DNA from: Thermoleophilia bacterium
GTDB lineage: Bacteria; Actinomycetota; Thermoleophilia; BMS3ABIN01
Reading direction: 5' to 3'
NCBI GenBank assembly: GCA_030650885.1
Contig: JAUSDE010000197.1
Coordinates: 1-36,010 of the forward strand
Length of the DNA stretch: 36,010 bases
In this document: in pieces, positions 1,685 to 24,300 of the stretch
Layout: each line of letters begins with the position of its first letter
Numbering within the stretch: position 1 is the first letter of the stretch
Made by a program: the position numbers and the translations under genes
The notes under the pieces: generated by a model
Seen by the model: the letters and a program-made list of their open reading frames with translations, nothing else
Told to the model about the DNA's origin: nothing
Database searches by the model: none

Positions 1685-1760
1685 CTTCGAACCAGCTTCT
1701 GATAGAGCTGCTCTACCATCGACTCCCCTTGAGATCGCCCAAACCTTGCCCTAATCAACA

Positions 1761-1794
1761 AAGGTCAGGAATCACATGTATGATTCCTGACCTT
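1761..1794 (-). terminator. Intrinsic-terminator-like hairpin between the BNR-LGFP gene and the next gene
   Basis: AAGGTCAGGAATCA-catgta-TGATTCCTGACCTT is a perfect 14-bp stem. It is T-rich on the plus-strand side (GTCGTTTTCTATTT) and has UUGUUGAUU on the minus-strand RNA. It lies ~135 nt downstream of the stop at 1929. Confidence 0.5.
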
Positions 1795-1928
1795 GTCGTT
1801 TTCTATTTCCGGATCTGCTCACCCCGGTTATATTAATTCATCCACCGATGCGGATTACCTTCACTGCTCTTGCTGATCACACGCTGATCAAGCTGGTCGA
1901 TCACGGTGCAGCTGAATTGGACCTAGCT

Positions 1929-5153: not shown

Positions 5154-5465
5154 GAATACCCCTTAGTGGAAATATATTGAGTCTCTGAATCAGGACAACC
5201 CGGGGGGAATAAATGTATCTCTAGTAATTGCTTCGGAGATTCGCCCGCATAATCAACTCGAAACCCGCTCTGATCACTGTATTATTCACCCGTTATAACG
5301 CATCTTTCCTGTGTAATAAAGGTACCTTCTTGCAAGAGCTAAATCAAGTTATACACAGTTTAAGCAATGTTGCGAAATATTACCTGATGCACCCTTTTTG
5401 AGTGATATTCATGCCATTTACACGCGAAGAAAATCTGAAAACGAAGAAACCGGCGCGGGTGATCC

Positions 5466-5912
5466 CTACATTACATCGATCCAGGTGCCATATAACGCGC
5501 CCCAGGTGACGAATCCATGCTGGAACTGGCTGCGCCTGCCGCCGCCCGGCAGGGCTATGGAGTATTCATCCGTTAACGGCAGTCCAAGGCGGGAGTTAGG
5601 GCCGCAGTTATTGGTCCCGGCATCGCAATAACCCATATATCTGATGTAGATGCCGCCGTTGACCGTATGTCCGCCTGTAACTGAAGACCAGTAAACATTC
5701 CCGTTCTGGAAAGTGTTCATTCTGGCTCCGGTGATACCGGGGACGACGCCGGGGACGTCCTTCTCTTCACCCGTAGCAAGGTGCAGGGCGCCCGTAGGAC
5801 CGCCGAGCAGCTGGTATTTGCCCATGATGCCTCCATAGACTGCGAAGGCTCCCAGGGCGTCGTTCCAGGTAATGATCGCATTTTGCATATTCTGGGCTTT
5901 GCCGTCCCAGGC
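5466..5912 (-). repeat. Conserved 3' LGFP tail module, copy 1 (last 148 codons of the CAP gene)
   Basis: Encodes AWDGKAQNMQNAIITW...GARMNTFQNGNVYWS...YCDAGTNNCGPNSRLGLPLTDEYSIALPGGGRRSQFQHGFVTWGALYGTWIDVM, closely matching copies 2 and 3. Confidence 0.8.
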
Positions 5913-7169
5913 TGCATATTCATCGCTGATCGGCAGGCCATAAGGCCCCGCAGGTCCGCCCTCGGCCATGTACTTTGTCATGACCGGACCTGCCGTGACA
6001 CCAAAAGCACCTACGCCCGGGCCCCAATAAACCGTACCGCCGGTGAATTCACTCTTCCTGGCGCCGGTCACACCGGGAACGTCGCCCTCACCAGCGGTCG
6101 TAAAACCTAACGGACCGGCCGGGCCACCCAGTATCTTGTATTTACCCATGATGCCGCCGACGACGGCATATACAGGATTCGATGTACCGTCCCAGGTCAA
6201 CGCCGCACGCTGGAAATACTGCGCCCTGCCACCCGCGGCGGCAAACTCGTCACCGACAGGCAGCCCATATGCTCCGGCGGGTCCGCCCTGTGCCAGGTAG
6301 CTATCTACGATAGCCGTCCCTGGAATAACGCTGAAAGCGCCAATGCCAGGTCCCCAGTAGACTGTGCCATTTGTGAATTCGGTCTTCCTGGCGCCCGCGA
6401 CTCCATTGACATCGCCTTCATCGCTTACAGGAAGGCCGAGCGGACTGTTCCAACTGCCGAGCTGGTCGAATTTGGTCAGGATGGCGCCTCGAACCCAGTA
6501 GACTTCATTCCTCGATTGGTTCCATACCAGCCTCCCGCTGACAAAGTCCTGATACGTGCCACCTGTCATTACCTGGGCATAATTTGTAGCGGGACCGGGA
6601 GCCCCACCAAGCGCATTCCATTTTCCCGCCACAGATGCGTCAATAGGATAGACCGGTGCTTCAGAAACACCGCCGAAGTCCGTCGTCCAGTACCAGCCAT
6701 AAGTAGAGCCAGGAACGTAGTACCTGCCGATGCCGATCGCCCGAAAGTTGGCACTGAGCATGTTGGCGTTGTGACCAGGTGAGGCGCGCCAGGCGACAAA
6801 GACATCAAATGCAGTGCCATAGCCTGCTGCGATATTTTCTCCCAGATATGTGTTGTATGTATAACCGGCATAGCGAATCCGATCCCAGGGAGTGACCCCC
6901 TGTGGATCATTGTGAGCGAAATAATTCCTCGCGCCCATATCGTAGCTATGCCCCTCGGAAGCGACATACAATGAATTGGAAAGAGTCAGTGGCCCCAGGC
7001 CATAAGCCGCGCGGTGATTGTTGATATAAGTCAGGAAAGCAAGCTCTTCGTTGTCATAAGCAGAGGCTGCCGGAACGACCGCGAGACTTACGAACAGGAC
7101 TATCATAAATACGGCGAACGCCGAGATCACAAACCGCGAAGAAATTATTTTCCCACCCGTGGCTACCAT
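5466..7169 (-). CDS. Secreted CAP/SCP (PR-1/YkwD-like) domain protein with LGFP repeat array
   Basis: 567-aa ORF with an N-terminal membrane/signal segment. The CAP-like block is NNHRAAYGLGPLTLSNSLYVASEGHSYDMGARNYFAHNDPQG...GENIAAGYGTAFDVFVAWRASPGHNANMLSANFRAIGIG (nt ~6672-7049). LGFP repeats run from aa ~176 to the C-terminus. SD GGGAG lies 6 nt upstream of the ATG. Confidence 0.85.
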   Translation of the reverse strand: MVATGGKIISSRFVISAFAVFMIVLFVSLAVVPAASAYDNEELAFLTYINNHRAAYGLGPLTLSNSLYVASEGHSYDMGARNYFAHNDPQGVTPWDRIRYAGYTYNTYLGENIAAGYGTAFDVFVAWRASPGHNANMLSANFRAIGIGRYYVPGSTYGWYWTTDFGGVSEAPVYPIDASVAGKWNALGGAPGPATNYAQVMTGGTYQDFVSGRLVWNQSRNEVYWVRGAILTKFDQLGSWNSPLGLPVSDEGDVNGVAGARKTEFTNGTVYWGPGIGAFSVIPGTAIVDSYLAQGGPAGAYGLPVGDEFAAAGGRAQYFQRAALTWDGTSNPVYAVVGGIMGKYKILGGPAGPLGFTTAGEGDVPGVTGARKSEFTGGTVYWGPGVGAFGVTAGPVMTKYMAEGGPAGPYGLPISDEYAAWDGKAQNMQNAIITWNDALGAFAVYGGIMGKYQLLGGPTGALHLATGEEKDVPGVVPGITGARMNTFQNGNVYWSSVTGGHTVNGGIYIRYMGYCDAGTNNCGPNSRLGLPLTDEYSIALPGGGRRSQFQHGFVTWGALYGTWIDVM

Positions 7170-7371
7170 GATTTTCTCCCTGACCTGAAAAGATTACTCA
7201 TGAGATAAGAATTCGTCGAAAAACATCAGCCTTAATCATGACTATCTACTTATTGAGTCGGCAGTGACGCCAGTCCGCTTTATTGAAGAGGGTTCGAAGC
7301 GAACATCTCAAAAGGGAAAGAGCCATCTACTCTTCAGCGAACATATTCGTTAAAGGTTACTCGACCGGCGC

Positions 7372-7818
7372 TTATCTGACATCGACCCAAGTGCCGTACC
7401 AGGCGCCCCAGGTGACGAAACCGTGCTGAAGCTGGCTGCGCCTGCCACCACCGGGCAGTGGAATCGAGTATTCGTCGGTTATGGGCAGGCCCAGGCGGGA
7501 GTTAGGGCCGCAGTTTGAGGTTCCGGCGTCGCAATAGGATTTGTACCTGACATAGATGCCACCGTTGATGGTGTGTCCGCCGGTAATTATCGACCAGTAG
7601 ACATCGCCGTTCTGGAACATATTCATCCTGGCGCCGGTCACACCCGGGACCACCCCGGGGACATCGATCTCATCGCTGGTCGCCAGATGCAACGGTCCCG
7701 TGGGGCCGCCCAACATCTGGTACTTGCCCATGATGCCGCCGTAGACCGCGTGAGCTCCCAGGCTGCTGTTCCAGGTTATGATCGCCTTCTGCATGTTCTG
7801 CGCTTTACCGTCCCAGGC
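7372..7818 (-). repeat. Conserved 3' LGFP tail module, copy 2 (GH26 gene)
   Basis: Encodes AWDGKAQNMQKAIITW...GARMNMFQNGDVYWS...YCDAGTSNCGPNSRLGLPITDEYSIPLPGGGRRSQLQHGFVTWGAWYGTWVDVR. The DNA aligns by eye with 9441-9887, with mostly scattered third-position differences. Confidence 0.8.
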
Positions 7819-9084
7819 GTTATAGGCATCGCTGACAGGCAGTCCATAATATGCCGGTCCGCCGGTCCCGCCACCCGATGGAGCCGCCAGGTACTTGGCA
7901 AGGATCTCGCCATTTACCCAGTAAACCGCGTTCGTCGACTGGTTCCAGAAGAGGCTGCCGTTACTGAAATCCTGGTACTTGCCGCCGGTTATTGTCTGCG
8001 CCACATCGAGAGCGGTACCGGGCGCGCCACCAAGGGCATTCCATTTCTCGGCAAAGGGAGCCTCGACTAAAACCGGTGGCTGTGTGTTGCCGTCATCAAT
8101 AATCGCGGCACGGAACGACTGCAGGCCGGCAGCGGAACTCTGGACTCTCCAGTCGGTTTCTTTATTGATATTGAACCAGGTCAGGCTGATGATGCGAGGG
8201 AATCTTGATGGCAGGGAAGCAAATGCGTCGGTGATCCAGCCGGCTTTCCCGCCATTGCCGGTATTGCCGCCCACCTCAGTCGTCGCTGTCTCGCAGATAA
8301 CAACGGATTTATCAGTGTTCGCGACGGCCACGTCATAACTGTAGCGAATGACCTCTTCAAAACTTTGCCAGGAAGATGTCCAATCCGGAGTATTGTAAAG
8401 AGTGCCCCAGTTGTATCCGTTTATTCCAATGAAATCCACGTAAGCATCGCCGGGATAGTAGGTATTAAAAGTTGCCTGGGCCGCGCTGGTGGAGCCATCG
8501 CGATTCGGCGACCAGACCCATTTGACGTTAGTCGCGCCTTCCTGGACAAAGATGTCGTGGACATGCCGCCAGGCAGGTATATAGTCCTGCGGTGAATTCC
8601 CGTTTGCGCTGCCACCCCATGTGACCCAGTCACCATTCATCTCGCTCATCGGGCGGAAATAGACCGGGTAGCCAAAATCCCTCAGCTGCCTGGCCCATCG
8701 CCTGATGTCGTTGTCGAAATCGCCGGCGGTTATTCTTGCAAGTCGATACTCGGGCTGATCGGTGGCGGGACGGCTGAAATCATGGGGCTCCCAGGCCAGC
8801 TGGATGATGCGGCCTTCCTGGGCCATCGGGAGAAAGGTGTCAGCGTAAAAATCCTCACTTATCGACTCATACCACAAAAAGACATCCGTCTGCCGGCCGA
8901 TGGAGCTTTCGAAATCGTGGAGATCTTCGACGGAAGGAAGCTGCTCGTCAGGGAATTGAGGATCGGGGAAGAAGACGCCGAGTTGCAGGGGGTTTGGTGC
9001 TGCATCCGCACTCGCGACAGCGGCCGTGGTAAAAAAGATACAGAACAGAACCGCCGCTAATATCGTAGCTATGACGCGAAACAT
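7372..9084 (-). CDS. Secreted GH26-type glycoside hydrolase (beta-mannanase-like) with LGFP repeats; start moved to the internal Met
   Basis: The ORF track gives 7372..9291 (639 aa). Its first 69 aa have no signal peptide and overlap a structured riboswitch-like leader. Met70 (ATG 9084..9082) begins MFRVIATILAAVLFCIFFTTAAVASADA (signal peptide) and follows a GAGGAGG SD. GH26-like motifs are YFRPMSEMNGDWVTWGG, YYPGDAYVDFIGINGYNWG and VVICETATTE (nt ~8107-8994). LGFP repeats run from EKWNALGGAPGTA to the end (nt ~7375-8064). Confidence 0.8.
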   Translation of the reverse strand: MFRVIATILAAVLFCIFFTTAAVASADAAPNPLQLGVFFPDPQFPDEQLPSVEDLHDFESSIGRQTDVFLWYESISEDFYADTFLPMAQEGRIIQLAWEPHDFSRPATDQPEYRLARITAGDFDNDIRRWARQLRDFGYPVYFRPMSEMNGDWVTWGGSANGNSPQDYIPAWRHVHDIFVQEGATNVKWVWSPNRDGSTSAAQATFNTYYPGDAYVDFIGINGYNWGTLYNTPDWTSSWQSFEEVIRYSYDVAVANTDKSVVICETATTEVGGNTGNGGKAGWITDAFASLPSRFPRIISLTWFNINKETDWRVQSSAAGLQSFRAAIIDDGNTQPPVLVEAPFAEKWNALGGAPGTALDVAQTITGGKYQDFSNGSLFWNQSTNAVYWVNGEILAKYLAAPSGGGTGGPAYYGLPVSDAYNAWDGKAQNMQKAIITWNSSLGAHAVYGGIMGKYQMLGGPTGPLHLATSDEIDVPGVVPGVTGARMNMFQNGDVYWSIITGGHTINGGIYVRYKSYCDAGTSNCGPNSRLGLPITDEYSIPLPGGGRRSQLQHGFVTWGAWYGTWVDVR

Positions 9085-9101
9085 GGGGAGCCAGGCCTCC
9101 T

Positions 9102-9185
9102 CGGCGGCAGCCAGGCTGTCATAGTCCGAAGACCTTAGACCCTTGGCTTTGCGCCACCCCGTTTCCGAGGTTTTGCCTTTATCAC
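9102..9185 (-). promoter_or_regulatory. Candidate c-di-GMP-I (GEMM-I) riboswitch in the 5' leader of the GH26-LGFP gene
   Basis: Minus-strand RNA: GUGAUAAAGGCAAAACCUCGGAAACGGGGUGGCGCAAAGCCAAGGGUCUAAGGUCUUCGGACUAUGACAGCCUGGCUGCCGCCG. In order it shows GGCAAAACC; a CCUCG/CGGGG hairpin with a GAAA tetraloop; GCGCAAAGCC; a second hairpin with tetraloop-receptor-like UCUAAG...UAUGA and a UUCG loop; and an AGCCUGGCUGCC 3' block. The GAGGAGG SD follows directly. Confidence 0.7.
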
Positions 9186-9440
9186 CCGGAACTGGCTTCT
9201 CCCCCACCAACCACGCGCCACGGTGTAGCCACTTATGTGACCAATACTTGTATCGGTCTTTACATAAACCCGCTTTATTGCCGTTGGACAAAGGGAGTAT
9301 GGTTTGCCGCCTCGGAAAGTGGACTGATTCAAGGTCAGGGTCGTTCTAATTATTGTGAAAAGTATCATGTATAGAATATCGATGCATCCAGCGGGGAGGA
9401 AATGTTAATCGAAAGCCCTTCAGAATAACCGGGGGAATTG

Positions 9441-9887
9441 CTACATGACGGTTACCCAGGCGCCGTACCATAGCCCCCAGGTGACAAAGCCGTGCTGAAG
9501 CTGGCTGCGCCTGCCACCACCGGGCAGGGCAATCGAGTATTCATCGGTTATTGGCAGGCCCAGGCGGGAGTTGGGGCCGCACTTTGAGGTTCCTGCATCG
9601 CAATAGGCCTTGTAGATCACGTAGATGCCGCCGTTGATCGTGTGTCCGCCTGTGACCGTGGACCAGTAGACATCGCCGTTCTGGAACATGTTCATCCTGG
9701 CGCCGGTGACACCGGGGACTACGCCGGGGACGTCGATCTCATCGCTGGTTGCGAGGTGCAGGGCTCCTTTTGGACCACCCAACATCTGGTATTTGCCCAT
9801 TATCCCACCATAAACCGCGTGAGCTCCCAGGGTGCTATTCCAGGTTATGATAGCTTTTTGAAGGTTCTGTGCCTTGCCGTCCCAGGC
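9441..9887 (-). repeat. Conserved 3' LGFP tail module, copy 3 (M4 protease gene)
   Basis: Encodes AWDGKAQNLQKAIITW...GARMNMFQNGDVYWS...YCDAGTSKCGPNSRLGLPITDEYSIALPGGGRRSQLQHGFVTWGLWYGAWVTVM. Confidence 0.8.
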
Positions 9888-12308
9888 ATCATAAACGTCG
9901 CTGACAGGAATTCCGTAGTATGCCGGCCCGCCGGTTGCTCCGCCCGCCGGAGGCTCCAGGTATTTGGCGAGGATATAGGCATCCGAGATCGCGTAGGTGC
10001 CGATACCCGGACCCCAGTAGATCCTGCCGCTGGCGAAATCGCTCTCCCTGGCGCCGGTTACGCCAGTGACGTCTATCTCGTCACTCACGGGAAGGCCGAG
10101 CGCACCAGATTCACGGCCCTGCTGGTCATATTTTGTCAGGATAGCGCCATGAACCCAGTAGACCGTATCGGTCGACTGGTTCCAGATGAGCCTGCCGTTG
10201 CTGAAATTCTGGTATTGCCCGCCGGTGATCGTCTGCGCCGCACTAGTGGCTGTGCCCGGAGCTCCACCCAGTGCGTTCCATTTTTCCAGGAATGGAGTTT
10301 CGACGGGTAGTGGAGTGTCATCCTGTGTTGGGACGAAAGAATACACTGTGACGAGGTCATTCACGGCTACCGGAGTATCTGTAGCCGTGAAGGTCACTCC
10401 GTTATCCGTGATTGAAAAAGTCCTGATGGAACCGGTATCCTGGCCGGCGGCGTCATAGACTTTAAGGAACCATCGATTCTGCCAGCTGGGAGACAGATAG
10501 GCGCTACCGCCGGAGATGTCGACCGTCGAATAGATATTATCCGCGGAACCGCCCTGCCGATTCGAGACCACAGTCGACCAGCTTGGCGAATCCGGATTGC
10601 CGACTCCAAGGGTCACTATCAGATCGCCCCTGTAGGTGTGGTCGATCTCGATTCTCGCATTCTGGGTGGATGACTGGCCTGAGCCGATTCCGACAGCTGC
10701 AAAACCGTTTTGCACTGCGATTACTTCCGGGCTGCCCGAACCATAAAGGTCGGCAGCCGACTGCACGCTCGCGTCTCGAGCATCGACAAACTGAGATCCG
10801 GAGTTCAGGTATAAAGTCAACGTCCGGTACCAAATGAACTCCATCTTGTCCTTGCCGATCGCTGTGGCAATGTTATAAGCCGCCTTGTTCGGTATGCCGC
10901 TGTTTGTATGGACGCCACCGTTGTCGCTTGAAGTATTCACATAGCTGTTCATGTGGTCGGGTTGCCCATACTGCGCAGGATTGGACACGCTACGAAGCGC
11001 GTCCCCCGGGGTATTCGGCGTGTATACGTCCTCACCCAGCAGCCAGTCGTCACGGTCCACCATCACACCGAATACATCTGAGTAGGATTCGTTTAGCGCG
11101 CCAGACTGGTATGAGTAGACGAGGTCGGCGGTATATTGCGTGACCCCGTGGGTGAGCTCGTGGGCGACAACATCCAGGCTGTTGCCGAGCGGGCCGAAAA
11201 CATTTCCATCGCCGTCTCCGTAGACCATCTGCTGGCCGTTCCAGTAGGCGTTGTTATAGCTGCTGCCATAGTGGACAGTCGAGATCAGGGAAGCTCCGGC
11301 GTTATTGAAACTGTCGCGCCCGAATGTGCTGGAGTAGTAGTCATAGGTTGAGCCGATATTATTGTGTGCCGCCTGGGCGACGCTGTCCCCGGAGGAACCA
11401 CCCTCGCTGATGAGCAGAGTGCCGGGCGTGGTGGTGCCACTGCCGGCCGTGTAGGTACGGCGATTCTTTACATCTTCGAGGGCGTCATATCGATCTACGA
11501 TGCTGCCATCTTTGGCCCCGACAAAATAAACCATCCGCACGGGCGGGTTATCATTGGCAAGGGTGATCTGCCACGCCAAAACCGGCCGGTTGGGATCAGG
11601 GGAATAGATCACCAGCTGAGGTGGTTCGAACGTCGAAGCTGCTGCAGGGAACCCAAAGTCATGCAGTGCTGCATCGATAGCCTGATCCAGTGTCACCGCG
11701 GGATCCACCGACAGATCGATACCAGGCACGTAGCGCCCGTTCACGGTCTGAATCTTGTTGCCAGGGCTGAAGTGCACTGACATCTCTGTCCCAAAAACCG
11801 GAAGACCTTTGTAAACCTGGGCCATGTGCAGATGTACCATGCCCATTTCATCCACGACCTGGCGCTGCTCCGACAGCTCGGCGCCCGGATCTGTCATGCG
11901 GTATAAATCCTTGTTCTCATCGAAAAACGCAACTGCCTCGACTGTCGGGCTCCCAGTCACTGGCGGTGTTATCGATCCCGTTATAAATGCCGGTATGCCT
12001 GTTTCGGCATCCCAGCGGATGGAGGTTGATTCGCTTTCTACGAGCGTTGATCCTGAGTCTGTCTTTTGTGGGATGTCGGCTGCGCCATCTACACCCGGCG
12101 AGCCTGTTTCCGGAATACTGAAGTTGACTTCTGAGGCGACTTGCGGTGAGACTTCGGCTACTGCATCAACTGAAATGGCGGGATTATCGGCTGGAACGGC
12201 TGGAACGGCCGCGAACTGCTCTGTCAGTAAAAACAAAGAAACAACGGCAGTCAAAACTACTGCCAGGATGGCCGCTAACTTGCATAGCCACTTACCTGAA
12301 GGCCCCAT
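9441..12308 (-). CDS. Secreted M4 (thermolysin-like) zinc metalloprotease with propeptide, P-domain and LGFP repeats
   Basis: 955-aa ORF with an N-terminal signal anchor. The propeptide-like region includes VHLHMAQVYKGLPVFG. The M4 active site is VVAHELTHGVTQYTADLVYSYQSGALNESYSDVFG (HELTH at nt 11148-11162). The proprotein-convertase-type P-domain block is IEIDHTYRGDLIVTLGVGNPDSPSW...WFLKVYDAAGQDTGSIRTFSI (nt ~10401-10658). LGFP repeats cover aa ~672-955. SD GGGAG precedes the ATG. Confidence 0.88.
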   Translation of the reverse strand: MGPSGKWLCKLAAILAVVLTAVVSLFLLTEQFAAVPAVPADNPAISVDAVAEVSPQVASEVNFSIPETGSPGVDGAADIPQKTDSGSTLVESESTSIRWDAETGIPAFITGSITPPVTGSPTVEAVAFFDENKDLYRMTDPGAELSEQRQVVDEMGMVHLHMAQVYKGLPVFGTEMSVHFSPGNKIQTVNGRYVPGIDLSVDPAVTLDQAIDAALHDFGFPAAASTFEPPQLVIYSPDPNRPVLAWQITLANDNPPVRMVYFVGAKDGSIVDRYDALEDVKNRRTYTAGSGTTTPGTLLISEGGSSGDSVAQAAHNNIGSTYDYYSSTFGRDSFNNAGASLISTVHYGSSYNNAYWNGQQMVYGDGDGNVFGPLGNSLDVVAHELTHGVTQYTADLVYSYQSGALNESYSDVFGVMVDRDDWLLGEDVYTPNTPGDALRSVSNPAQYGQPDHMNSYVNTSSDNGGVHTNSGIPNKAAYNIATAIGKDKMEFIWYRTLTLYLNSGSQFVDARDASVQSAADLYGSGSPEVIAVQNGFAAVGIGSGQSSTQNARIEIDHTYRGDLIVTLGVGNPDSPSWSTVVSNRQGGSADNIYSTVDISGGSAYLSPSWQNRWFLKVYDAAGQDTGSIRTFSITDNGVTFTATDTPVAVNDLVTVYSFVPTQDDTPLPVETPFLEKWNALGGAPGTATSAAQTITGGQYQNFSNGRLIWNQSTDTVYWVHGAILTKYDQQGRESGALGLPVSDEIDVTGVTGARESDFASGRIYWGPGIGTYAISDAYILAKYLEPPAGGATGGPAYYGIPVSDVYDAWDGKAQNLQKAIITWNSTLGAHAVYGGIMGKYQMLGGPKGALHLATSDEIDVPGVVPGVTGARMNMFQNGDVYWSTVTGGHTINGGIYVIYKAYCDAGTSKCGPNSRLGLPITDEYSIALPGGGRRSQLQHGFVTWGLWYGAWVTVM

Positions 12309-12521
12309 TTTCCACTCCCAGTACCGGCGTTTTCATCCCCGACAGGGTCTGGCGCCTCCCCAAAAAAGTCTACTGGGATTACAGCCTTGAACTTGGCCTA
12401 TGCCCGAACCCTCAATAACTGATTCGGCCCGGGAGCGACTATATATAAGCCGGAGGGGGTGCTAACGCGGTTCAGGAGGGGGTCTACCCCTGTCCGAGAA
12501 CGGGCGTTCAGGGACTTTTAC

Positions 12522-15500
12522 TCAGGATGCGCGGGCGATCGCTATGCGGACGTTCCTGGTCGTATTTACCGTCTGCACGGTGGTTCCCGTGTAATAATAA
12601 CCGAGGATAGTGGTATAACTATCGCCGCGGCTGGCGCGATCCAGCGCACCATGACCGCTGAGGCCGACCCCATGGCCGTTCATGGCCATTCCGGCGCAGT
12701 CTGGGTCGGCAACGCTTTGCAGCCAGGGCCAGGTGCTGATGCCCCAGACCTCTTGTGCCGAACGGGTCCTGCCATCGGAGTTGGAGAAGTATGAGGTCAT
12801 GGCCACAGAACCGCCATACGTCACGACCTGCCCGGCGGTAGAGGTCACCGCTGTCGCCAGGTCGGGGAACCTTGCTTCCAACCCATAACCCTTGTACTGC
12901 TGGTCGTCGCCGTTACCATTACGGCTGTTTTTCAGGTGGAAGATCTCGCTGGCACCGTATTTTCCATTACGGTCCAGGTGCCAGACAGCGTAACTGCGGG
13001 CAGCCACGGTCATCGTCTTGAGAAAATCTGTGGGCACGCCGGAACTGGTCTCAGCGATTCCCCTCATGTAAAGCTCGAGGGGCAGCTCGTTAACTACCCA
13101 AACCGCATCTGACGCCGGCGAGTAACGCACCTCGATCGTTCCGCGGAAGAGGTTATCGTCCAGACCAGGATTCCAGCTGGGGATGTCATGATAAGAAGAA
13201 ACCTTCATGACGCCCCCATTGGCCGTAAACCTGATGTAAGAAGAGCCATTGAGAGAAACGCCGGGAGCCTGCAGGCTGTAGTTACCGCTGCTGTACCTGA
13301 CTGAAGCAACCTGGCCGGGAGCAATCGTTGCCAGCAGAGCCCCACCTGCATCTCGAGCCTCGTATGTCGAATCAGCAGTCACGGTGGTGGCAGTACCGGC
13401 AAATACCTGAGTGCCGGTAGTGGCGCTCCAGTAAATGTAGCCACCCTGGAAATCGCTGCGCCGGCCGGACCCGTAATCATATTCATCGGTGAGCGGCAGG
13501 CCTAATGCTGAGGTGGGACCACCATACTCGATGTACTTCACATAGATCCCACCATTGACCGTGTGGCCACCTGTAGTCGAAGACCAGTAGATGCGGCCGC
13601 GCTGGAAACCATGCTCCCTGGCTCCGGATACACCGGAGACATCAGTCTCACCGGAAACCGGCAAGCCAAGGGCGCCGGCGGGTCCGCCAAGCTGCAGATA
13701 TTTCCCGAGTATGCCGCCGTAGACTTCGTATGTGCCGGTGGTTGCGTGATAGTAGATGCGCCCTTGCTGGAAGTCGCTTTCCCTGCCGCCAGTGACGCCC
13801 GAAATATCGTACTCATCGGTCAAGGGCAGGCCCAGGAGCCCCGCGGGACCACCAAGTGCTAGATATTTAGTGAAGATAGCGCCCATCACAGCATGGCCGC
13901 CAGTGACCGGGGCCCAATAGATGCGCCCGCGCTGGAAGGCGCTCTCCCTGGCTCCGGATACTCCGCTTACGTCTCCCTCATCGCTGGTCGCGAGCCCGAG
14001 CGACCCGGCCGGGCCTCCGAACTGCGCATATTTGACCTGGATGCCTCCTATTACCGAATGAGCGCCGAGAGAAGCCTCCCAGGTGATCGTCCCTCGCTGC
14101 AGGTTCTGGGCCCTTCCATTAGCGGCGGCGTACTCATCGCTCGTCGGCATGCCATATGATCCCGCGGGGCCACCAAGCGCCAGATATTTCGTCAATATCG
14201 CACCGTAAACACCGTATACACCAACACCCGGCGCCCAGTAGATCCTGCCGTTTGTGAATTCGCTCTGGCGGCCTCCGGAAAGACCTGAAATATCGCTCTC
14301 GTCGCTGACGGGAAGGCCTAGTGGCGAGGCAGGTCCGCCCAGCGCAAGGTATTTCCCGAGAATCCCACCAATCACAGTTCGGGAACTGCCACTAGCGGAC
14401 CAATAGATCCGAGCCCGCTGAAAGTCGCCGGCTCTTGTACCGGCATAACCCGGCACGTCGTATTCGTCGGTCGTAGGGAAGCCATCACGGGCGACACCGC
14501 CATCACTTAGCAGCTTTGCGAGGATCGCCCCCGTCACGGCATGTGTGCCGACGCCGGGACACCAGTAAATCCTGCCGCCCGCAAAGTCGTTGCCGCGCCC
14601 CTCTGCCACGCCGTATTCATCACTTCTGGGCAAGCCCATGGATCCAGACGCACCGCCAAGCTGATTGTATTTTTCAAGGATGCCACCGTGGATCCAGTAA
14701 ACTCCGCCGGCGGGGTTCCATATGATGATGCCATTCTGGAAATCCTGGGCCTGCGCCTCAAGCGGGCACTGGCCACCGGGATTCGACAGGCAGTACTCAG
14801 CGCCTGTTGCCGGACCGGGCGCTCCGTTGAGGCTGTCCCACTTGACGCGGATGCCTGCGACTATCGGAATCGGTGAATAATTGATGTATGCCGCCGTCCT
14901 GAAATATGGCAGATAGGCGTAGAGAGAGTCTCCGGGGCAAGCAGTGTAATTTCCGGCAAGATCACGATGTCCCAGAATATTTGATGAGTAACCGCCGACC
15001 GGATAGCAGTTATCAGGACAACCTTCGTAATGAACGAAATAACTATTTCCGTATGGGTCGATCTGGTTCTGGTTGGCCTTTATCGTCATCAGTTCTGCGA
15101 CAGCGTTATAGATGGCGGTATTTATATCGTGCGCCTCGTAGTTGCCCATCACGGAGATTCCGACCGAACCGGTATTCCAACCCAAAGCATGAGCGCCGAC
15201 GACACCGTTGCCGCCCATCCGCCCCTCGTAGACCCGTCCGAGTTCGTCAACGAGGAAGTTGTAGCCGATATCTCCCCATCCGAGGCTGACAGCATGGTAT
15301 TGCCAGATGCCGAGCACTGTGGCAAACGGATTCGGATCATAGTTGGAGCCCGCCGTGTGATGAAGGATGATCTTCTTCGGCTGGGCATATTCGGAGGGCC
15401 AGTTCGCCTGTGTATAGGCGTCGTTGGCTCCCCACTGGGTTCTGGGGATGTAATTGAGGTCTGCGCTGGCCGAGGCCGGAGCGAGCGCGTCTCTGACGTT

Positions 15501-16115
15501 TTGACTAATATTCGACAGGGACAGCTGTGAGTTGTGATAGCCCCTGGAGTCGATGTAGCTGGCCGTCATCTTTGTGACTACCGGCACCTGGCCGGTTGGG
15601 CTGCTGGTCAGGTCGATGCGATACTGAAAAAATCGGCCGGCGTCCGTGAAAATCAGATCGCCTATCGTCTCGCCCGCGGATTTGGTGCTGGCAAAGTGGT
15701 TGGGTAATTCGTCGACTACTTCGCTGACCGGCTGCCAGTCACCCCACTGGCTGCCGTCCTGGCTGAAGCGGACTTCCACGGCTACGTCGGCTCCGGACGG
15801 CTGATCGGCTTTCCAGTGAAGCCCGAGGGCGTTGAAAGTGTAATCGGCCGCGATGGGTTCGGAGAGATAGCTGCCTTGAGGCTGTGCTGGCTGCAGAGAA
15901 AGCGCCAGCTCCCGGCTTCCAGCCACGGGAACGACGCCGGTGCCACTCGATTCGCCTGATTCAAAGTCGGTGCCGGTCTGGACAAAGTCACCGCTGATTG
16001 CTTCCGGGTGAGATGTCTGGCTGCCGAATCCGGGAAAAACAAAGAATGCGGCAATCAGAAGCAGAACCACGACTGCTGTTCCTGTGAAGTACTTATACCT
16101 GCCACGCATGATCAT
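12522..16115 (-). CDS. Membrane-anchored/secreted N-acetylmuramoyl-L-alanine amidase (Amidase_2/PGRP-type) + 9 LGFP repeats + SpoIID/LytB-type domain
   Basis: 1197-aa ORF with an N-terminal hydrophobic segment. The Amidase_2 block is KKIILHHTAGSNYDP...WGDIGYNFLVDELGRVYEGR...LGHRDLAGNYTACPGD (nt ~14928-15452). Nine repeats of the type I(L/F)xKYLxLGGPxGxLGLPxSDExDxSGVxGxRExxFxxGRIYW cover nt ~13401-14858. The C-terminal SpoIID-like block is LELYMRGIAETSSGVPTDFLKTMTVAARSYAVWH...VVTYGGSVAMTSYFSNSDGRTRSAQEVWG...GHGVGLSGHGA (nt ~12561-13163). Confidence 0.88.
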   Translation of the reverse strand: MIMRGRYKYFTGTAVVVLLLIAAFFVFPGFGSQTSHPEAISGDFVQTGTDFESGESSGTGVVPVAGSRELALSLQPAQPQGSYLSEPIAADYTFNALGLHWKADQPSGADVAVEVRFSQDGSQWGDWQPVSEVVDELPNHFASTKSAGETIGDLIFTDAGRFFQYRIDLTSSPTGQVPVVTKMTASYIDSRGYHNSQLSLSNISQNVRDALAPASASADLNYIPRTQWGANDAYTQANWPSEYAQPKKIILHHTAGSNYDPNPFATVLGIWQYHAVSLGWGDIGYNFLVDELGRVYEGRMGGNGVVGAHALGWNTGSVGISVMGNYEAHDINTAIYNAVAELMTIKANQNQIDPYGNSYFVHYEGCPDNCYPVGGYSSNILGHRDLAGNYTACPGDSLYAYLPYFRTAAYINYSPIPIVAGIRVKWDSLNGAPGPATGAEYCLSNPGGQCPLEAQAQDFQNGIIIWNPAGGVYWIHGGILEKYNQLGGASGSMGLPRSDEYGVAEGRGNDFAGGRIYWCPGVGTHAVTGAILAKLLSDGGVARDGFPTTDEYDVPGYAGTRAGDFQRARIYWSASGSSRTVIGGILGKYLALGGPASPLGLPVSDESDISGLSGGRQSEFTNGRIYWAPGVGVYGVYGAILTKYLALGGPAGSYGMPTSDEYAAANGRAQNLQRGTITWEASLGAHSVIGGIQVKYAQFGGPAGSLGLATSDEGDVSGVSGARESAFQRGRIYWAPVTGGHAVMGAIFTKYLALGGPAGLLGLPLTDEYDISGVTGGRESDFQQGRIYYHATTGTYEVYGGILGKYLQLGGPAGALGLPVSGETDVSGVSGAREHGFQRGRIYWSSTTGGHTVNGGIYVKYIEYGGPTSALGLPLTDEYDYGSGRRSDFQGGYIYWSATTGTQVFAGTATTVTADSTYEARDAGGALLATIAPGQVASVRYSSGNYSLQAPGVSLNGSSYIRFTANGGVMKVSSYHDIPSWNPGLDDNLFRGTIEVRYSPASDAVWVVNELPLELYMRGIAETSSGVPTDFLKTMTVAARSYAVWHLDRNGKYGASEIFHLKNSRNGNGDDQQYKGYGLEARFPDLATAVTSTAGQVVTYGGSVAMTSYFSNSDGRTRSAQEVWGISTWPWLQSVADPDCAGMAMNGHGVGLSGHGALDRASRGDSYTTILGYYYTGTTVQTVNTTRNVRIAIARAS

Positions 16116-16300
16116 CCATACCCCGCTTGAAGCTTATACCCTGCCATACCTTAACAAATATTTGCAGGGAGTTCGGCGCCGTGAATATTAATCTACCAGC
16201 GCAGCGTGCTGCCCCGGAAACGCCGGGCTATTACCTGAAAGTTATGCCCGCCGCCCGCATATCCTTCAAATTGGCTGCCCAACCCTATAGGATTCGAAAC

Positions 16301-17416
16301 ATGAGAATCGGTATCGAAGGCCTGCCCCTCCTGTTCCACCGCACTGGAACCTCGACCTACACCCATGAGCTGGTACAGAGCCTGAGACGGCTGAACCGGG
16401 GTGACCAGGTGATCCTTTTCGCGCGGGACCAGCGGATGGCGGGGGATTCCTACCACAACATCTCTTTCGCGGAGAGGGCGGCAAACTATATCTATAAAGA
16501 GTATCGGCTGCCACAGGAGCTGGCCGAACGGGGCATCGATATCTATCATGCCCCGCGTGACATGGGCTTGCCCAAGACATCGCGCCTGCCGTGTGCCAGC
16601 ATCATCACCCTGCATGACATCATTCTGATCAGGCTGGCGTCGGACTACTACAGTGCGGCAAGGGCGCGGATGTATGAACGCCGCCTGCGCGACAGGGTTG
16701 GAGGTGCCGACCATGTCATCACGATTTCCGAGTTCTCCCGCAAGGACATCCTCGACTGGTGTGACATCGACCCTGGCAAGATCAGCGTCGTACACGACGC
16801 CGTCAACGAAACTTTTCGCCCGGTTACCGACGAGGCGAAGCTGGCTGCTGTCGGCAGCCGCTATCAGCTGCCACCTCGTTTTGCCCTGTGCGTGGGTTCG
16901 ACGGAACCGCGCAAGAATATCCGCAACTCGATCAAGGCATTCACGCAGCTCAGGCGCGTCCGCGCCGACGTGCAGCTGGTTGTAACCGGTGTGGAGTACT
17001 GCCGGGTCGGTCCCGATCAGGCTTTTGCGGGCCTGGACCTGGAAGGCGTCCATTTCGCTGGATATGTACACGACCAGGACATGCCGGCCATATACAGCAT
17101 GGCCGAAGTGCTGGTTTTTCCTTCCCTGTACGAAGGGTTCGGATTGCCGCCACTCGAATCGATGGCCTGTGGCACGCCGGTGGTCACCTCAAACTCCACA
17201 TCCATCCCCGAAATCGTCGGGGATGCGGCGGTGCTGGTCGACCCTGAAAGCCCGGCCGAGATCGCAGGAGCTCTGGAAATGGTGCTATCCTCCGGCGACG
17301 TTCGCGCCGGACTGATCGAAAAGGGTACTGCCCGCGTCGCGACTTTCAGCTGGCGGCAGTGTGCTGAAGAGACACGAGATCTTTATCAGCGGGTATTATC
17401 AGCCCGTGGCCACTAA
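16301..17416 (+). CDS. Glycosyltransferase family 4 (GT-B, Glycos_transf_1)
   Basis: The ORF track gives 16127..17416. The typical GT4 N-terminus MRIGIEGLPLLFHRTGTSTY starts at ATG 16301, and the upstream 58 aa look non-coding. C-terminal signature: LVFPSLYEGFGLPPLESMACGTPVVTSN (E-x7-E). Confidence 0.85.
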   Translation: MRIGIEGLPLLFHRTGTSTYTHELVQSLRRLNRGDQVILFARDQRMAGDSYHNISFAERAANYIYKEYRLPQELAERGIDIYHAPRDMGLPKTSRLPCASIITLHDIILIRLASDYYSAARARMYERRLRDRVGGADHVITISEFSRKDILDWCDIDPGKISVVHDAVNETFRPVTDEAKLAAVGSRYQLPPRFALCVGSTEPRKNIRNSIKAFTQLRRVRADVQLVVTGVEYCRVGPDQAFAGLDLEGVHFAGYVHDQDMPAIYSMAEVLVFPSLYEGFGLPPLESMACGTPVVTSNSTSIPEIVGDAAVLVDPESPAEIAGALEMVLSSGDVRAGLIEKGTARVATFSWRQCAEETRDLYQRVLSARGH

Positions 17417-19142
17417 CACTGAAATAGCCCAGATTCTTGAGACGCTGGCCGAGCTGATGGAGCTCGACGGTGTTAACAAGTTCAGATTCATAGCCCTTCA
17501 AAAGGCTGCGCGGCGCGTCTCTGAGGCTGGCTTCTCCATAACCGAACGGGCTGCCGCTGGAACCCTGACGGATATCCCCGACATCGGTGAGAAGATCGCC
17601 GCCAAGATCGAGGAGATCGTCGCAACTGGCAGGCTCGGGGAACTCGAGGAATATTTCCAGAAGTATCCCCCGGCCCTGATAGAGATGGAGCGGGTGCAGG
17701 GCGTCGGGCCGAGGACCGCCCGCCGCGTCTGGGAGGACCTGGGCGTGTCCAACATCGCCGAACTGGAGGCGGCCGCCCGTGACGGAAGCATTGCCGGTCT
17801 GCCTGGCCTGGGAGAGAAAAGCGCGGAAAACATCCTCAAGGCTATCGAACGGCTCAAGGTGCGAAGCGACCGGCTGCTGCTGGGCGAAGTTCTCCCCGTG
17901 GCCGAAGAGATCGCCGAGCGGCTCAGACGGGTTCCCGGAGCTCGTAATGTAACCTGCGCCGGCAGCGTCAGGCGTATGAAAGAGACGGTCAAAGATGTGG
18001 ACATCATCGCAACCGCAACGGACCCTGAAGCGTTGACGGGGGCTGTCGGCCGCCTGCCGATGGTCGCGGATATAATCACCAGCGGCCCTACTAAATGCTC
18101 AGTGCGCACCCATGCGGGCCTTCAGGTTGACCTGCGGGTGGTTCCAGACAGTCTTTACGGCAATCTCCTTCAACATTTCACAGGATCTAAAGAGCATAAT
18201 ATAGCCCTGAGGGAACTGGCTATATCGATGGGGCTCAAGGTCAGCGAGTACGGGGTTGAGGAGACCGCCAGCGGCAAGGTCAACGAATGTGCCACCGAAG
18301 CAGAAGTCTACAGCCTGCTCGGACTGGCTTACATCCCCCCGGAGCTACGCGAGGACAGCGGTGAACTGAAAGCCGCCGCGGAAGGCCGGCTGCCGCATCT
18401 TATCGAGACCGGAGACCTTAAGGGGGACCTGCACCTGCATACTGACTGGAGTGACGGACGCGCGTCGATCAAAGAGATGGCTCTCGCGGCACTGGATCGC
18501 GGTTATTCCTATATCGGTGTATCCGATCACACTCAGTCGATGGGCATGGTAAGAGGCCTGACTCCCAAGAGGCTTGAAGAGCAGCTCGCTGAAATCGCAC
18601 AGGTGAACGATGAGCTGGAGGGATTCCGCGTCTTCGCCAGCGCCGAAGTCGATGTAAGGTCAGACGGTTCACTTGACCTGCCGGATGAATCCCTGTCATC
18701 GCTTGATTTCGTCACTGTCTCGATCCATTCCGGCTTCAATCAGGAGAAATCACAGATAATGGAGCGGCTGCGCGCGGCCATGGAGAATCCGTTTGTCAGG
18801 GCCATCGGGCATCCAACAGGAAGATTGATCAACCGGCGTGAGCCTTACGAAGTGGACATGGAAGAGATTATCGCGACGGCGGCGCGAACGGGCACGGCGC
18901 TGGAGATCAACTCCCACTTTCAGCGGCTCGACCTTAACGACATCCATGCGCGGGCGGCAAAGAACGCCAGCGTACCACTCGTAATCAACAGCGACGCCCA
19001 CCGTCCGGAACATCTGGATGTGCTCAGATATGGCATTGCCACCGCCCGGCGCGGCTGGATCGAGCCGGCCGATGTCCTGAACACCTTGAGCACATCTGCC
19101 ATGGAAAAGGTCCTGCTCAAACCCAAGACCGGGATCCTCTAG
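17361..19142 (+). CDS. polX: DNA polymerase X family protein with C-terminal PHP domain (PolX)
   Basis: HhH motifs (GVGPRTARRVWEDLG, LPGLGEKSAENI), nucleotidyltransferase motif GSVRRMKETVKDVDIIA and PHP motif GDLHLHTDWSDGRASI...SDH. The in-frame GTG at 17406 (VATNTEIAQILETLAELMEL...) is an equally plausible start. Either start overlaps the GT4 stop. Confidence 0.85.
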   Translation: MLKRHEIFISGYYQPVATNTEIAQILETLAELMELDGVNKFRFIALQKAARRVSEAGFSITERAAAGTLTDIPDIGEKIAAKIEEIVATGRLGELEEYFQKYPPALIEMERVQGVGPRTARRVWEDLGVSNIAELEAAARDGSIAGLPGLGEKSAENILKAIERLKVRSDRLLLGEVLPVAEEIAERLRRVPGARNVTCAGSVRRMKETVKDVDIIATATDPEALTGAVGRLPMVADIITSGPTKCSVRTHAGLQVDLRVVPDSLYGNLLQHFTGSKEHNIALRELAISMGLKVSEYGVEETASGKVNECATEAEVYSLLGLAYIPPELREDSGELKAAAEGRLPHLIETGDLKGDLHLHTDWSDGRASIKEMALAALDRGYSYIGVSDHTQSMGMVRGLTPKRLEEQLAEIAQVNDELEGFRVFASAEVDVRSDGSLDLPDESLSSLDFVTVSIHSGFNQEKSQIMERLRAAMENPFVRAIGHPTGRLINRREPYEVDMEEIIATAARTGTALEINSHFQRLDLNDIHARAAKNASVPLVINSDAHRPEHLDVLRYGIATARRGWIEPADVLNTLSTSAMEKVLLKPKTGIL

Positions 19143-24182: not shown

Positions 24183-24300
24183 ATTTAAAATCAGTCAATC
24201 ATGTTTGATTCAGTCAAGCAGTCACGATTGCAGCGGAATCCCCCAGCCGCGCAACGGTCGGCAGCTTGAGATATCTGCGATAGTATCCGAAAGCCCGGTC

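Follow-up and report, generated by a model that had tools for sequence, protein, structure and literature searches.

In the 36,010-nucleotide stretch of Thermoleophilia DNA analyzed here (the window), a single gene joins a predicted peptidoglycan amidase to a SpoIID/LytB-like domain through nine LGFP repeats, and we think it probable that the product is an exported, wall-associated bifunctional peptidoglycan hydrolase that works in two steps, the amidase baring the glycan and the SpoIID-like domain cutting it. The open reading frame has exactly the length first claimed for it, and from N to C terminus it encodes a signal or anchor, a beta-sandwich, an Amidase_2 domain, the nine repeats, a beta lead-in, and the SpoIID/LytB-like domain. 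A public gene caller places the start at Met3 instead (nt 16109), giving a protein of 1195 aa; the numbering below is that of the longer form.

12522..16115, reverse strand: complete coding sequence, 1197 aa, stop codon 12522-12524
16029..16115, reverse strand: putative export signal or signal-anchor, aa 1-29, read directly from the sequence
15549..15998, reverse strand: beta-sandwich (jelly-roll) domain, aa ~40-189, from AF2, Foldseek, and conservation
14928..15386, reverse strand: Amidase_2/PGRP-type N-acetylmuramoyl-L-alanine amidase domain, aa 244-396, Pfam PF01510
15357-15359, reverse strand: predicted Zn ligand H253 of the amidase
15261-15263, reverse strand: predicted catalytic Tyr Y285 of the amidase
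14967-14969, reverse strand: predicted Zn ligand H383 of the amidase
14937-14939, reverse strand: predicted Zn ligand C393 of the amidase
13401..14855, reverse strand: nine tandem LGFP repeats, aa 421-905, 485 aa in total, 52-56 aa each
14697-14855, reverse strand: LGFP repeat R1
14535-14696, reverse strand: LGFP repeat R2
14376-14534, reverse strand: LGFP repeat R3
14208-14375, reverse strand: LGFP repeat R4
14052-14207, reverse strand: LGFP repeat R5
13887-14051, reverse strand: LGFP repeat R6
13722-13886, reverse strand: LGFP repeat R7
13557-13721, reverse strand: LGFP repeat R8
13401-13556, reverse strand: LGFP repeat R9
13107..13394, reverse strand: lead-in rich in beta-strands, ahead of the SpoIID-like domain, aa 908-1003, model pLDDT >90
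12525..13106, reverse strand: SpoIID/LytB-like domain, short form, aa 1004-1197
13050-13052, reverse strand: catalytic Glu candidate E1022, aligned with C. difficile SpoIID E101 (5txu numbering)
12996-12998, reverse strand: R1040 of the SpoIID-like domain
aa 1147-1151: GHGVG motif of the SpoIID-like domain

Domains and catalytic residues

The first 29 residues comprise a basic stretch (MIMRGRYKY), an 18-residue hydrophobic stretch, and PGFG/S, a pattern kept in the orthologues. The ~190-residue N-terminal region ahead of the amidase, described in the earlier note as being of unknown fold, exists and is conserved, but its fold can be named. Its AF2 model (pLDDT 85.6) is a jelly-roll beta-sandwich whose best Foldseek matches are CBM6, CBM61, CBM86, and the ephrin-receptor LBD (E 2e-5 to 1e-3, TM 0.45-0.6), and it probably corresponds to the Rv3811_N family (PF27503) of newer Pfam. 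Orthologues P0008, P0010, and P0021 and many Amidase_2+LGFP proteins have this label as a precomputed annotation; the window protein reaches it via the orthologues, its N-domain aligning with those of PF27503-annotated proteins. In relatives the beta-sandwich is always found immediately before the Amidase_2 domain, and it is probably a glycan-binding module.

The Amidase_2 domain scores 57.3 bits against a Pfam cutoff of 26 and is matched by PGRP structures (E 6e-16), the alignments to which start in agreement with the range originally proposed for the amidase (14928-15452, aa 222-396). Its predicted Zn triad (H253, H383, and C393) and catalytic tyrosine (Y285) correspond to H17, H122, C130, and Y46 of T7 lysozyme, and the Zn site of T7 lysozyme/Ts2631 has been validated by mutagenesis (PMC4573324). 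All four residues are invariant in 58 of 58 fused relatives, and the noncatalytic PGRP-S has Ser at the position aligned with C393. The domain is predicted from its sequence to cleave the MurNAc-L-Ala amide bond.

The LGFP profile (PF08310) matches nine stretches, in tandem units of ~54 aa, with 358.8 bits against a cutoff of 22, and the boundaries found (aa 421-905) agree with the nine repeats over ~485 aa that had been described. The region is homologous to the C. glutamicum PS1/MytA structures 6swz and 6sx4 (E 3e-28). The LGFP stalk of MytA binds the peptidoglycan-arabinogalactan wall of its own producer (PMC11299179), and by analogy the nine repeats are predicted to form a wall-binding stalk. 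Individual repeats are positionally orthologous among the orthologues, in which the spacer measures 474-498 aa, so that repeat number is conserved. The long spacer of the earlier note is present in this protein, but it is not a universal feature of the fusion, as only a short linker joins the domains in the Chloroflexota versions. LGFP, found also in four neighboring genes, is a putative generic wall anchor of this genome.

The C-terminal domain scores 43.3 bits with Pfam SpoIID (PF08486, aa 1004-1100, cutoff 23) and 114.2 bits with NCBIfam SpoIID_LytB (TIGR02669, cutoff 83.3), so that Amidase_2, LGFP, and SpoIID all lie above curated profile cutoffs, and its first proposed range (12561-13163, aa 985-1185) agrees with alignments to PDB 4rwr and 5txu. 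None of the E-values for these assignments comes near what chance would give. The beta lead-in is conserved together with it in all N-to-C fusions. A model of the two (aa 908-1197, AF2, pLDDT 95.2) matches the SpoIID structures 5i1t (E 3.3e-12) and 4rwr (E 2e-10) with TM ~0.5 in Foldseek and also matches the lytic transglycosylase SleC. The score for the sporulation SpoIID equivalog TIGR02870 (spore_II_D), at 79 bits, is far below the cutoff of 234.75. By these profiles the domain is a SpoIID/LytB family member and not a SpoIID orthologue; the original description of it as SpoIID type holds at the family level and fails for sporulation SpoIID proper. It is also a short form: between SVxDP (aa 1134-1138) and GHGVG, nothing corresponds to 81 residues of 4rwr (197-277) and 93 of 5txu (223-315), and the query has 2-7 residues in their place. 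The short form is common to all fused homologues checked.

Mutation of E101, the C. difficile residue aligned with E1022, abolishes SpoIID activity (PMC6221140). In 59 of 59 fused homologues, which come from three phyla, E1022 and R1040 do not vary, and neither do Y1016, G1019, and the GHGVG core (H1148/V1150/G1151), so that the candidate catalytic glutamate, like the predicted Zn triad and tyrosine of the amidase, is both present and conserved. The catalytic motif is shortened in the window clade (GIAE versus GVVxxE(M)), and Chloroflexota versions retain G-x4-E. The clostridial Zn site is absent, H134/C140/H145/C146 aligning with Y1053/I1058/N1063/S1064, but it is also absent in Bacilli (PMC6934232) and is therefore not family defining.

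Recurrence of the fusion

Amidase_2 and SpoIID-like domains are both present in 58 of the 120 best hits, joined by spacers of unrelated types. Fusions through other spacers occur in Actinomycetota and Patescibacteria, in the latter frequently (Peribacteria, Peregrinibacteria, Gracilibacteria, and Andersenbacteria), and in Chloroflexota the domain order is reversed, with the catalytic residues retained. Separate, adjacent amidase and SpoIID-like genes are found at two loci (L008 and L031), and an NJ tree, which carries no support values, places split forms among fused forms. Thermoleophilia also have SpoIID-less paralogues, and in L086 one of them is encoded immediately upstream of the fused gene. 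Since different-spacer fusions, reversed-order fusions, and adjacent separate genes all occur in other lineages, these sequence patterns give strong support to the suggestion that the amidase and SpoIID-like activities work together. The architecture recurs widely in public MAGs of uncultured bacteria, and its novelty is therefore below what had been implied; it is an authentic and coherent design of moderate novelty.

Proposed function and alternatives

In the reading that we favor, the protein, from an uncultured Thermoleophilia-type actinobacterium, would be exported by Sec, via a signal peptide or N-terminal anchor, and the nine LGFP modules would serve as an elongated stalk keeping it on the cell wall. 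The beta-sandwich and Zn-dependent Amidase_2 domain would cut the MurNAc-L-Ala bond and strip the stem peptides, and the SpoIID/LytB-like domain would then cleave the denuded strands, with E1022 as the catalytic acid. A single wall-tethered chain would give 1:1 stoichiometry and co-localization of the two activities, so that bared glycan would be removed at the place of its making. With a stalk of ~485 aa separating the domains, substrate is not expected to pass directly from one to the other, and at most co-localization can be claimed. Wall turnover or daughter-cell separation are likely uses. In line with this order of events, C. difficile SpoIID alone is inactive (PMC6221140), and Waddlia and B. 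subtilis SpoIID digest peptidoglycan once CwlH, an Amidase_2 enzyme, or AmiA has acted on it. Waddlia SpoIID, however, cleaves denuded strands in the manner of a muramidase and shows some activity toward intact peptidoglycan, which makes both the product here (anhydro- or reducing muropeptide) and a strict dependence on the amidase uncertain.

In the window the gene is the first of five in a row whose predicted secreted products carry LGFP anchors, the neighbors including an M4 thermolysin-like protease, a GH26 glycosidase, and a CAP-domain protein. Such surface-anchored degradative neighbors (protease and GH26) are as compatible with a role directed outward as with autolysis. It is conceivable, though rather unlikely, that the same two-step chemistry is directed at foreign peptidoglycan, in necromass scavenging or attack on neighboring cells, and not at autolysis. 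The run resembles a set of tools for degradation at the cell surface, Patescibacteria, which are often attached to host bacteria, frequently have the fusion, and one Chloroflexota version carries a dockerin. In three Thermoleophilia relatives, however, the gene keeps its position beside housekeeping genes and genes for cell-envelope glycosyltransferases or Wzm/Wzt polymer export, with the extra hydrolase genes absent from the locus; no gene for toxin delivery or immunity adjoins the fusion gene; and the LGFP repeats of MytA bind the producer's own wall.

Membership in the SpoIID family does not guarantee lytic activity, because B. subtilis LytB (CwbA), which has wall-binding repeats and a SpoIID-family amidase enhancer region and stimulates lytic amidases, is listed as nonhydrolyzing. 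The domain studied here might likewise bind denuded or nascent glycan and stimulate or position the fused amidase, in which case the protein would function as an amidase alone, carrying its own enhancer. Its truncation by 81-93 residues would agree with such a role, as would a report that catalytically dead B. subtilis SpoIID stimulates SpoIIP, but this stimulation was not reproduced with C. difficile proteins (both in review PMC6934232). The domain model is confidently folded and SpoIID-like, and the invariance of E1022/R1040, Y1016, G1019, and H1148/V1150/G1151 is what one would expect if an active site had been preserved; we consider the accessory role unlikely.

A more elaborate version of the two-step scheme, which strikes us as improbable, is a spatially ordered wall-turnover device in which the LGFP stalk is a molecular ruler setting the delay between the reactions. 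An uncleaved N-terminal membrane anchor would place the amidase close to the membrane, and a stiff nine-LGFP stalk of conserved repeat number would set the SpoIID-like domain a fixed distance further out, so that strands bared in the inner wall would not be cut until inside-to-outside growth had brought them to the outer domain.

Finally, split adjacent versions in other genomes notwithstanding, there is next to no chance that the long reading frame is an assembly or frameshift artifact merging separate amidase and SpoIID-like genes, as the 3.6-kb frame runs without interruption and at least 22 full-length collinear orthologues (identity 53-82%, coverage 97-100%), from Thermoleophilia MAGs with conserved synteny, are present in independent NCBI, JGI, ENA, and Logan assemblies. 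No DNA-level tandem repeats are detectable across the nine LGFP repeats, making repeat-driven misassembly unlikely as well.

Significance

Proteins of the SpoIID family are common among bacteria that do not form spores, and little is known of their partners and roles there. Swapped spacers, both domain orders, and split neighbors across Actinomycetota, Chloroflexota, and Patescibacteria amount to Rosetta-stone-type evidence, which points to short-form SpoIID/LytB plus Amidase_2 as a general nonsporulation module for peptidoglycan disposal. The two-step hydrolase that we favor would extend to little-studied phyla the rule, known from SpoIIP/SpoIID and Atl, that the amidase acts first and the denuded-glycan cutter second. 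The principle itself is not new, being familiar from staphylococcal Atl and B. subtilis LytC/LytB, and databases already list the fusion proteins under generic names. As a single polypeptide, the fusion would be a convenient system for measuring the effect of tethering on two sequential wall hydrolases.

Comparison with known systems

The earlier note took SpoIIP/SpoIID as its model, but the amidase here is of the Amidase_2 and not the SpoIIP type, and the closest analogues are instead Atl and LytC/LytB. Like the window protein, Atl/AtlE (SP-propeptide-AmiA-R1R2-R3-GlcA) combines a secreted PGRP-like Zn amidase, wall-targeting repeats, and a glycan cutter in the same N-to-C order, and Atl GlcA cuts only naked glycan, after AmiA has removed the peptides (PMC7679415). 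The Atl cutter is a GH73-type exo-glucosaminidase in place of the SpoIID-like domain, and no GH73/glucosaminidase match was found in the window protein with Pfam, so the likeness is functional and architectural and not one of membership. Atl repeats are beta-barrel and LTA binding in place of LGFP, Atl lacks the N-terminal Rv3811_N beta-sandwich, and it occurs only in Staphylococcus and Macrococcus. Proteolytic processing splits Atl into two enzymes, and the window protein may be processed similarly.

B. subtilis LytC and its modifier LytB (CwbA), encoded by lytABC, are a vegetative wall-bound pair in which a SpoIID-family domain goes with an N-acetylmuramoyl-L-alanine amidase from a neighboring gene, making lytABC an operon counterpart of the fusion, as in L008. 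LytB has three wall-binding repeats and is reported to be a nonlytic enhancer. LytC and LytB are two proteins, with an Amidase_3 domain in LytC and CWB-type repeats, whereas the window protein is one chain with Amidase_2 and LGFP.

Thermoleophilia are not known to form endospores. In the SpoIIP-SpoIID engulfment machinery (with SpoIIM), as in our proposal, an amidase/endopeptidase bares the glycan and the SpoIID lytic transglycosylase then cuts it. The catalytic Glu of SpoIID is conserved (E101 in C. difficile, E1022 here), whereas the window amidase is unrelated to SpoIIP, and SpoIIM and SpoIIP orthologues are reported to be confined to Firmicutes (PMC6934232).

Mycobacterial Rv3811 (Ami3/Csp)-type proteins and Geodermatophilaceae LGFP amidases have the order Rv3811_N, Amidase_2, LGFP (Pfam lists), which the window protein probably shares up to its repeats, Rv3811 itself being an Amidase_2 protein (PMC3987819), but they end after the LGFP repeats, without a SpoIID-like domain, and are 30-38% identical over ~70% of the query. 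The SpoIID homologue of Waddlia chondrophila, a nonsporulator, cleaves glycan strands at the septum and digests amidase-bared glycan, but it is a stand-alone protein without LGFP repeats, and its lytic transglycosylase activity toward intact peptidoglycan is weak. C. glutamicum PS1/MytA has five LGFP repeats C-terminal to its mycoloyltransferase, whereas the window protein has nine, placed internally between two catalytic domains.

Gene integrity and domain structure

The frame at 12522-16115 (minus strand) is open without interruption and encodes a protein of 1197 aa, in which Pfam detected all three of the domain types that the earlier note had proposed:

aa 244-396, minus strand, Amidase_2 (57.3 bits; cutoff 26)
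aa 421-905, minus strand, nine LGFP repeats (358.8 bits)
aa 1004-1100, minus strand, SpoIID (43.3 bits; cutoff 23)

The C-terminus also falls within the NCBIfam family TIGR02669 (SpoIID_LytB), with 114.2 bits against a cutoff of 83.3. The gene coordinates, the nine repeats and the 485-aa spacer first read from the sequence proved correct when the ORF and the repeat boundaries were examined. Matches in the PDB were numerous PGRPs, along with Amidase_2 enzymes from phages or bacteria, for the amidase, Corynebacterium glutamicum PS1/MytA (6swz and 6sx4; E 3e-28) for the repeats, and the Bacillus anthracis and Clostridioides difficile SpoIID proteins (4rwr, 5i1t, and 5txu) for the C-terminus. The earlier note had allowed that a sequencing frameshift might have merged two separate genes. 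We reject such an artefact because the frame is uninterrupted and at least 22 clusters of collinear orthologues, several of them labeled "MAG: Thermoleophilia bacterium," share all three Pfam domains with the target, to which they are 53-82% identical over 97-100% of its length. A scan of positions 12200-16400 for promoters and terminators found none exceeding shuffle expectation.

The N-terminal region and the amidase

Residues 1-29 consist of a basic stretch followed by 18 hydrophobic residues and PGFG/S, a sequence that suggests a Sec signal or signal-anchor. The N-terminal region of ~190 aa, previously described as being of unknown fold, was modeled at aa ~40-189 as a jelly-roll beta-sandwich (pLDDT 85.6). 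The structures closest to it (E 2e-5 to 1e-3; TM 0.45-0.6) include carbohydrate-binding modules of the CBM6, CBM61, CBM86, and CBM32 types as well as sandwiches of the ephrin-receptor or MAM type, a likeness at the level of the fold that does not point to any particular ligand. A newer Pfam family, Rv3811_N (PF27503), names this domain and is precomputed on several of the orthologues and on many proteins with Amidase_2 and LGFP. Because the sandwich immediately precedes the amidase in every relative, the two form one unit.

The predicted zinc ligands H253, H383, and C393, together with Y285, are present in the amidase and invariant in 58 of 58 relatives. Their counterparts in T7 lysozyme and the Ts2631 endolysin form the H/Y/H/C zinc site, which has been validated by mutagenesis (PMC4573324). 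C393 lies opposite a serine of a non-catalytic PGRP in the alignment, at the position that distinguishes catalytic from non-catalytic PGRPs.

The LGFP array

Spacers in the orthologues span 474-498 aa, indicating that the number of nine repeats is conserved. The repeats share 30-71% protein identity, all are positionally orthologous with those of the closest sequenced orthologue, and no DNA-level tandem repeat was detectable in the LGFP region, observations that argue against both recent repeat expansion and repeat-collapse misassembly. The array is old and stable. In MytA, the LGFP modules extend from the protein like a stalk and pull down peptidoglycan-arabinogalactan (PMC11299179). LGFP is probably the organism's general wall-anchoring module and is not peculiar to the target, since the window has four further LGFP-bearing genes:

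1929-5153, minus strand, BNR/YCF48-like protein with 7 LGFP repeats
5466-7169, minus strand, CAP/SCP protein with 7 LGFP repeats
7372-9291, minus strand, GH26 protein with 3 LGFP repeats
9441-12308, minus strand, M4 thermolysin-like protein with a putative P-domain and 4 LGFP repeats

Together with the target, they make up five consecutive same-strand LGFP genes (1929-16115, minus strand), an island of putative wall-anchored surface proteins. The 955-aa product of 9441-12308 has an FTP propeptide motif, the catalytic and helical domains of thermolysin M4, and its four LGFP repeats at the C-terminus, a combination that suggests a secreted metalloprotease tethered to the wall; its match to the proprotein-convertase P-domain is weak (19.4 bits, under the cutoff).

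The SpoIID-like domain

With a very confident AlphaFold model of aa 908-1197 (pLDDT 95.2), the leading structural matches were all to SpoIID (E 3e-12 and 2e-10; TM ~0.5), and the lytic transglycosylase SleC came next. In a HMMER alignment with C. difficile SpoIID (5txu, a chain of 354 residues whose indices match the published numbering of H134, C140, H145, and C146), E1022, the candidate catalytic glutamate, stands opposite E101. In C. difficile, mutation of E101 abolished the activity of SpoIID in vitro as well as sporulation in vivo (PMC6221140). Across 59 proteins with both domains, E1022, R1040, Y1016, G1019, and residues H1148, V1150, and G1151 of the GHGVG core are invariant or nearly so. 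Activity of B. subtilis SpoIID requires K203 and D210 as well. The clostridial zinc site is absent, since its ligands H134, C140, H145, and C146 align to Y1053, I1058, N1063, and S1064 of the query; the same site is also missing from SpoIID of Bacilli (PMC6934232). Where clostridial SpoIID has its zinc-binding turn (yCxdxxHCQ), the actinobacterial subgroup has the motif HLKNSRNGNGDDQxYxGYG (aa 1058-1078; nt ~12882-12944), invariant or nearly so, of which only Q1072, Y1074, and G1076 are kept across all fused homologues.

Few residues separate SVADP (aa 1134-1138) from GHGVG (aa 1147-1151) in the query; between the same positions, B. anthracis SpoIID has 81 extra residues and C. difficile SpoIID has 93. 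This short form was found in every fused homologue checked. The catalytic motif is likewise two residues shorter in the query (GIAE versus GVVxxE). The short form, the shortened motif, and the model matches lead us to conclude that the C-terminal domain has the SpoIID/LytB fold in a compact form and is not an orthologue of sporulation SpoIID; with TIGR02870, the equivalog model of that protein, it scores 79 bits against a cutoff of 234.75.

Distribution and arrangements of the pairing

The survey that the earlier note had suggested recovered actinobacterial, Patescibacteria, and reversed Chloroflexota forms. Both Amidase_2 and a SpoIID-like domain were present in 58 of the 120 best database matches, 55 of which also have the beta-sandwich, and the order throughout is sandwich, amidase, spacer, SpoIID, with spacers of 370-720 aa. 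LGFP spacers are confined to the Thermoleophilia group, the others being either Ig-like repeats (N_BRCA1_IG or CARDB) or repeats without an assignment. When one genome per species was scanned, complete fusions turned up in Actinomycetes and Thermoleophilia MAGs and in Patescibacteria (Peribacteria, Peregrinibacteria, Gracilibacteria, and Andersenbacteria). Chloroflexota (Anaerolineae) proteins have the reverse order, confirmed by Pfam, in which the SpoIID-like domain is followed by a short linker and then the sandwich and amidase. They keep the catalytic residues and have flanking CarboxypepD_reg and Big_7 domains and, at the end of one, a dockerin. The reversed proteins and two split pairs, in loci from other genomes, are as follows:

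L055, 5293-9156, reversed order
L065, 1118-5278, reversed order, the protein ending in a dockerin
L018, 4060-10068, reversed order
L046, L073, and L077, also reversed order
L008 ("Bacterium BMS3Abin01"), 2-2197 and 3001-6885, same strand, Amidase_2 gene directly upstream of a 1295-aa gene ending in a SpoIID-like domain
L031 (a Patescibacteria genome), 1001-3391 (minus strand) and 5038-6840 (plus strand), Amidase_2 and SpoIID-like genes as divergent neighbors

In both split pairs, the SpoIID-like protein ends in the short form of the domain. The ~1000-aa N-terminal part of the SpoIID-like proteins of L008 and a further locus, L007, gave no confident Pfam assignment. In a rough neighbor-joining tree of the SpoIID-like domain, calculated without support values, the reversed Chloroflexota proteins form their own clade, actinobacterial forms that are split or unfused branch among the fused ones, and proteins with LGFP and other spacers are interleaved. 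Such patterns would be expected from selection keeping both activities together, with the spacer exchangeable. On a Thermoleophilia-like contig (L086), an 879-aa Amidase_2-LGFP paralogue that has no SpoIID-like domain (2545-5184) lies directly upstream of a full fusion of 1176 aa (5414-8944), both within a glycosyltransferase-rich cluster.

Genomic neighborhood

Three Thermoleophilia MAG loci have the neighborhood of the window in common. The shared side comprises a divergent GT4 glycosyltransferase, PolX, Peptidase_MA_2, a hypothetical gene, Dus, an ABC transporter, sigma-54, and a histidine kinase. The opposite side is occupied in the three relatives by glycosyltransferase genes and genes for polymer export of the Wzm/Wzt type, and in the window by the four LGFP-bearing genes instead. 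This conserved chromosomal setting does not support an origin as a phage endolysin or from a mobile element. The GT4 gene (16127-17416, plus strand) is the one immediate neighbor of the target conserved in all relatives examined. The PolX ORF (HHH, pol-beta thumb, and PHP; 17361-19142, plus strand) overlaps it by 56 nt as listed, and the true PolX start is therefore probably further downstream. Three successive genes at 24205-28575 (plus strand) encode sigma-54 (RpoN), a MASE1/PAS histidine kinase, and a sigma-54-dependent response regulator; sigma-54 and histidine-kinase genes occupy the corresponding place in one Thermoleophilia MAG locus (L001), and sigma-54 is found in another locus (L084) too.

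Proposed mechanism and role

The substrate of SpoIID enzymes is glycan strands already stripped of peptides. C. difficile SpoIID without SpoIIP is inactive on peptidoglycan (PMC6221140), and wall material treated with AmiA or with CwlH, which belongs to the Amidase_2 enzymes, is digested by Waddlia and B. subtilis SpoIID. We therefore propose that an amidase step precedes glycan cleavage. The exported protein would be held on the wall by its LGFP stalk, the amidase unit would remove stem peptides, and the SpoIID-like domain would then depolymerize the bared strands, with fusion providing fixed stoichiometry and co-localization. Direct channeling across the ~485-aa stalk is unlikely, and long separation of the domains is not required, since the Chloroflexota forms have a short linker.

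The hydrolase-rich neighborhood in the window and the abundance of the fusion in Patescibacteria could suggest that the target digests foreign wall material, but the conserved synteny with envelope-polymer genes favors a role in own-wall turnover or cell separation, and we consider digestion of foreign walls unlikely. The main rival to the proposed two-step reaction, that the SpoIID-like domain is a LytB-like amidase enhancer and not a glycan cutter, derives from the report that B. subtilis LytB does not hydrolyze peptidoglycan, and we judge it quite improbable.

Comparison with known systems

The earlier interpretation survives the check for each of the findings it had named as fatal (merged genes, a C-terminus not scoring as SpoIID, or loss of the catalytic glutamate) and gains comparative support. 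The likeness that it had drawn to SpoIIP/SpoIID stands for the reaction logic and fails for the amidase family, the cellular context, and orthology. The nearest vegetative-cell pair with a SpoIID-family domain is B. subtilis LytC/LytB, in which LytB combines wall-binding repeats with an "amidase enhancer" SpoIID region. The N-terminal three quarters of the target resemble Actinomycetota Amidase_2-LGFP proteins of the Rv3811 (Ami3) type. One review says of SpoIID/LytB homologues beyond Firmicutes only that their architectures vary (PMC6934232), and the literature searched contained no account of an Amidase_2-SpoIID fusion; such proteins are already in many public MAGs under generic names. The nearest design is staphylococcal Atl, a single precursor in which targeting repeats accompany a PGRP-like amidase and a glycan-cleaving domain, and whose glucosaminidase cleaves only naked glycan, after amidase action (PMC7679415). 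The glycan cutter is GH73 in Atl and SpoIID-like in the target, whose repeats are LGFP. The fusion appears to be a variant of an established design, the bifunctional amidase and denuded-glycan hydrolase.
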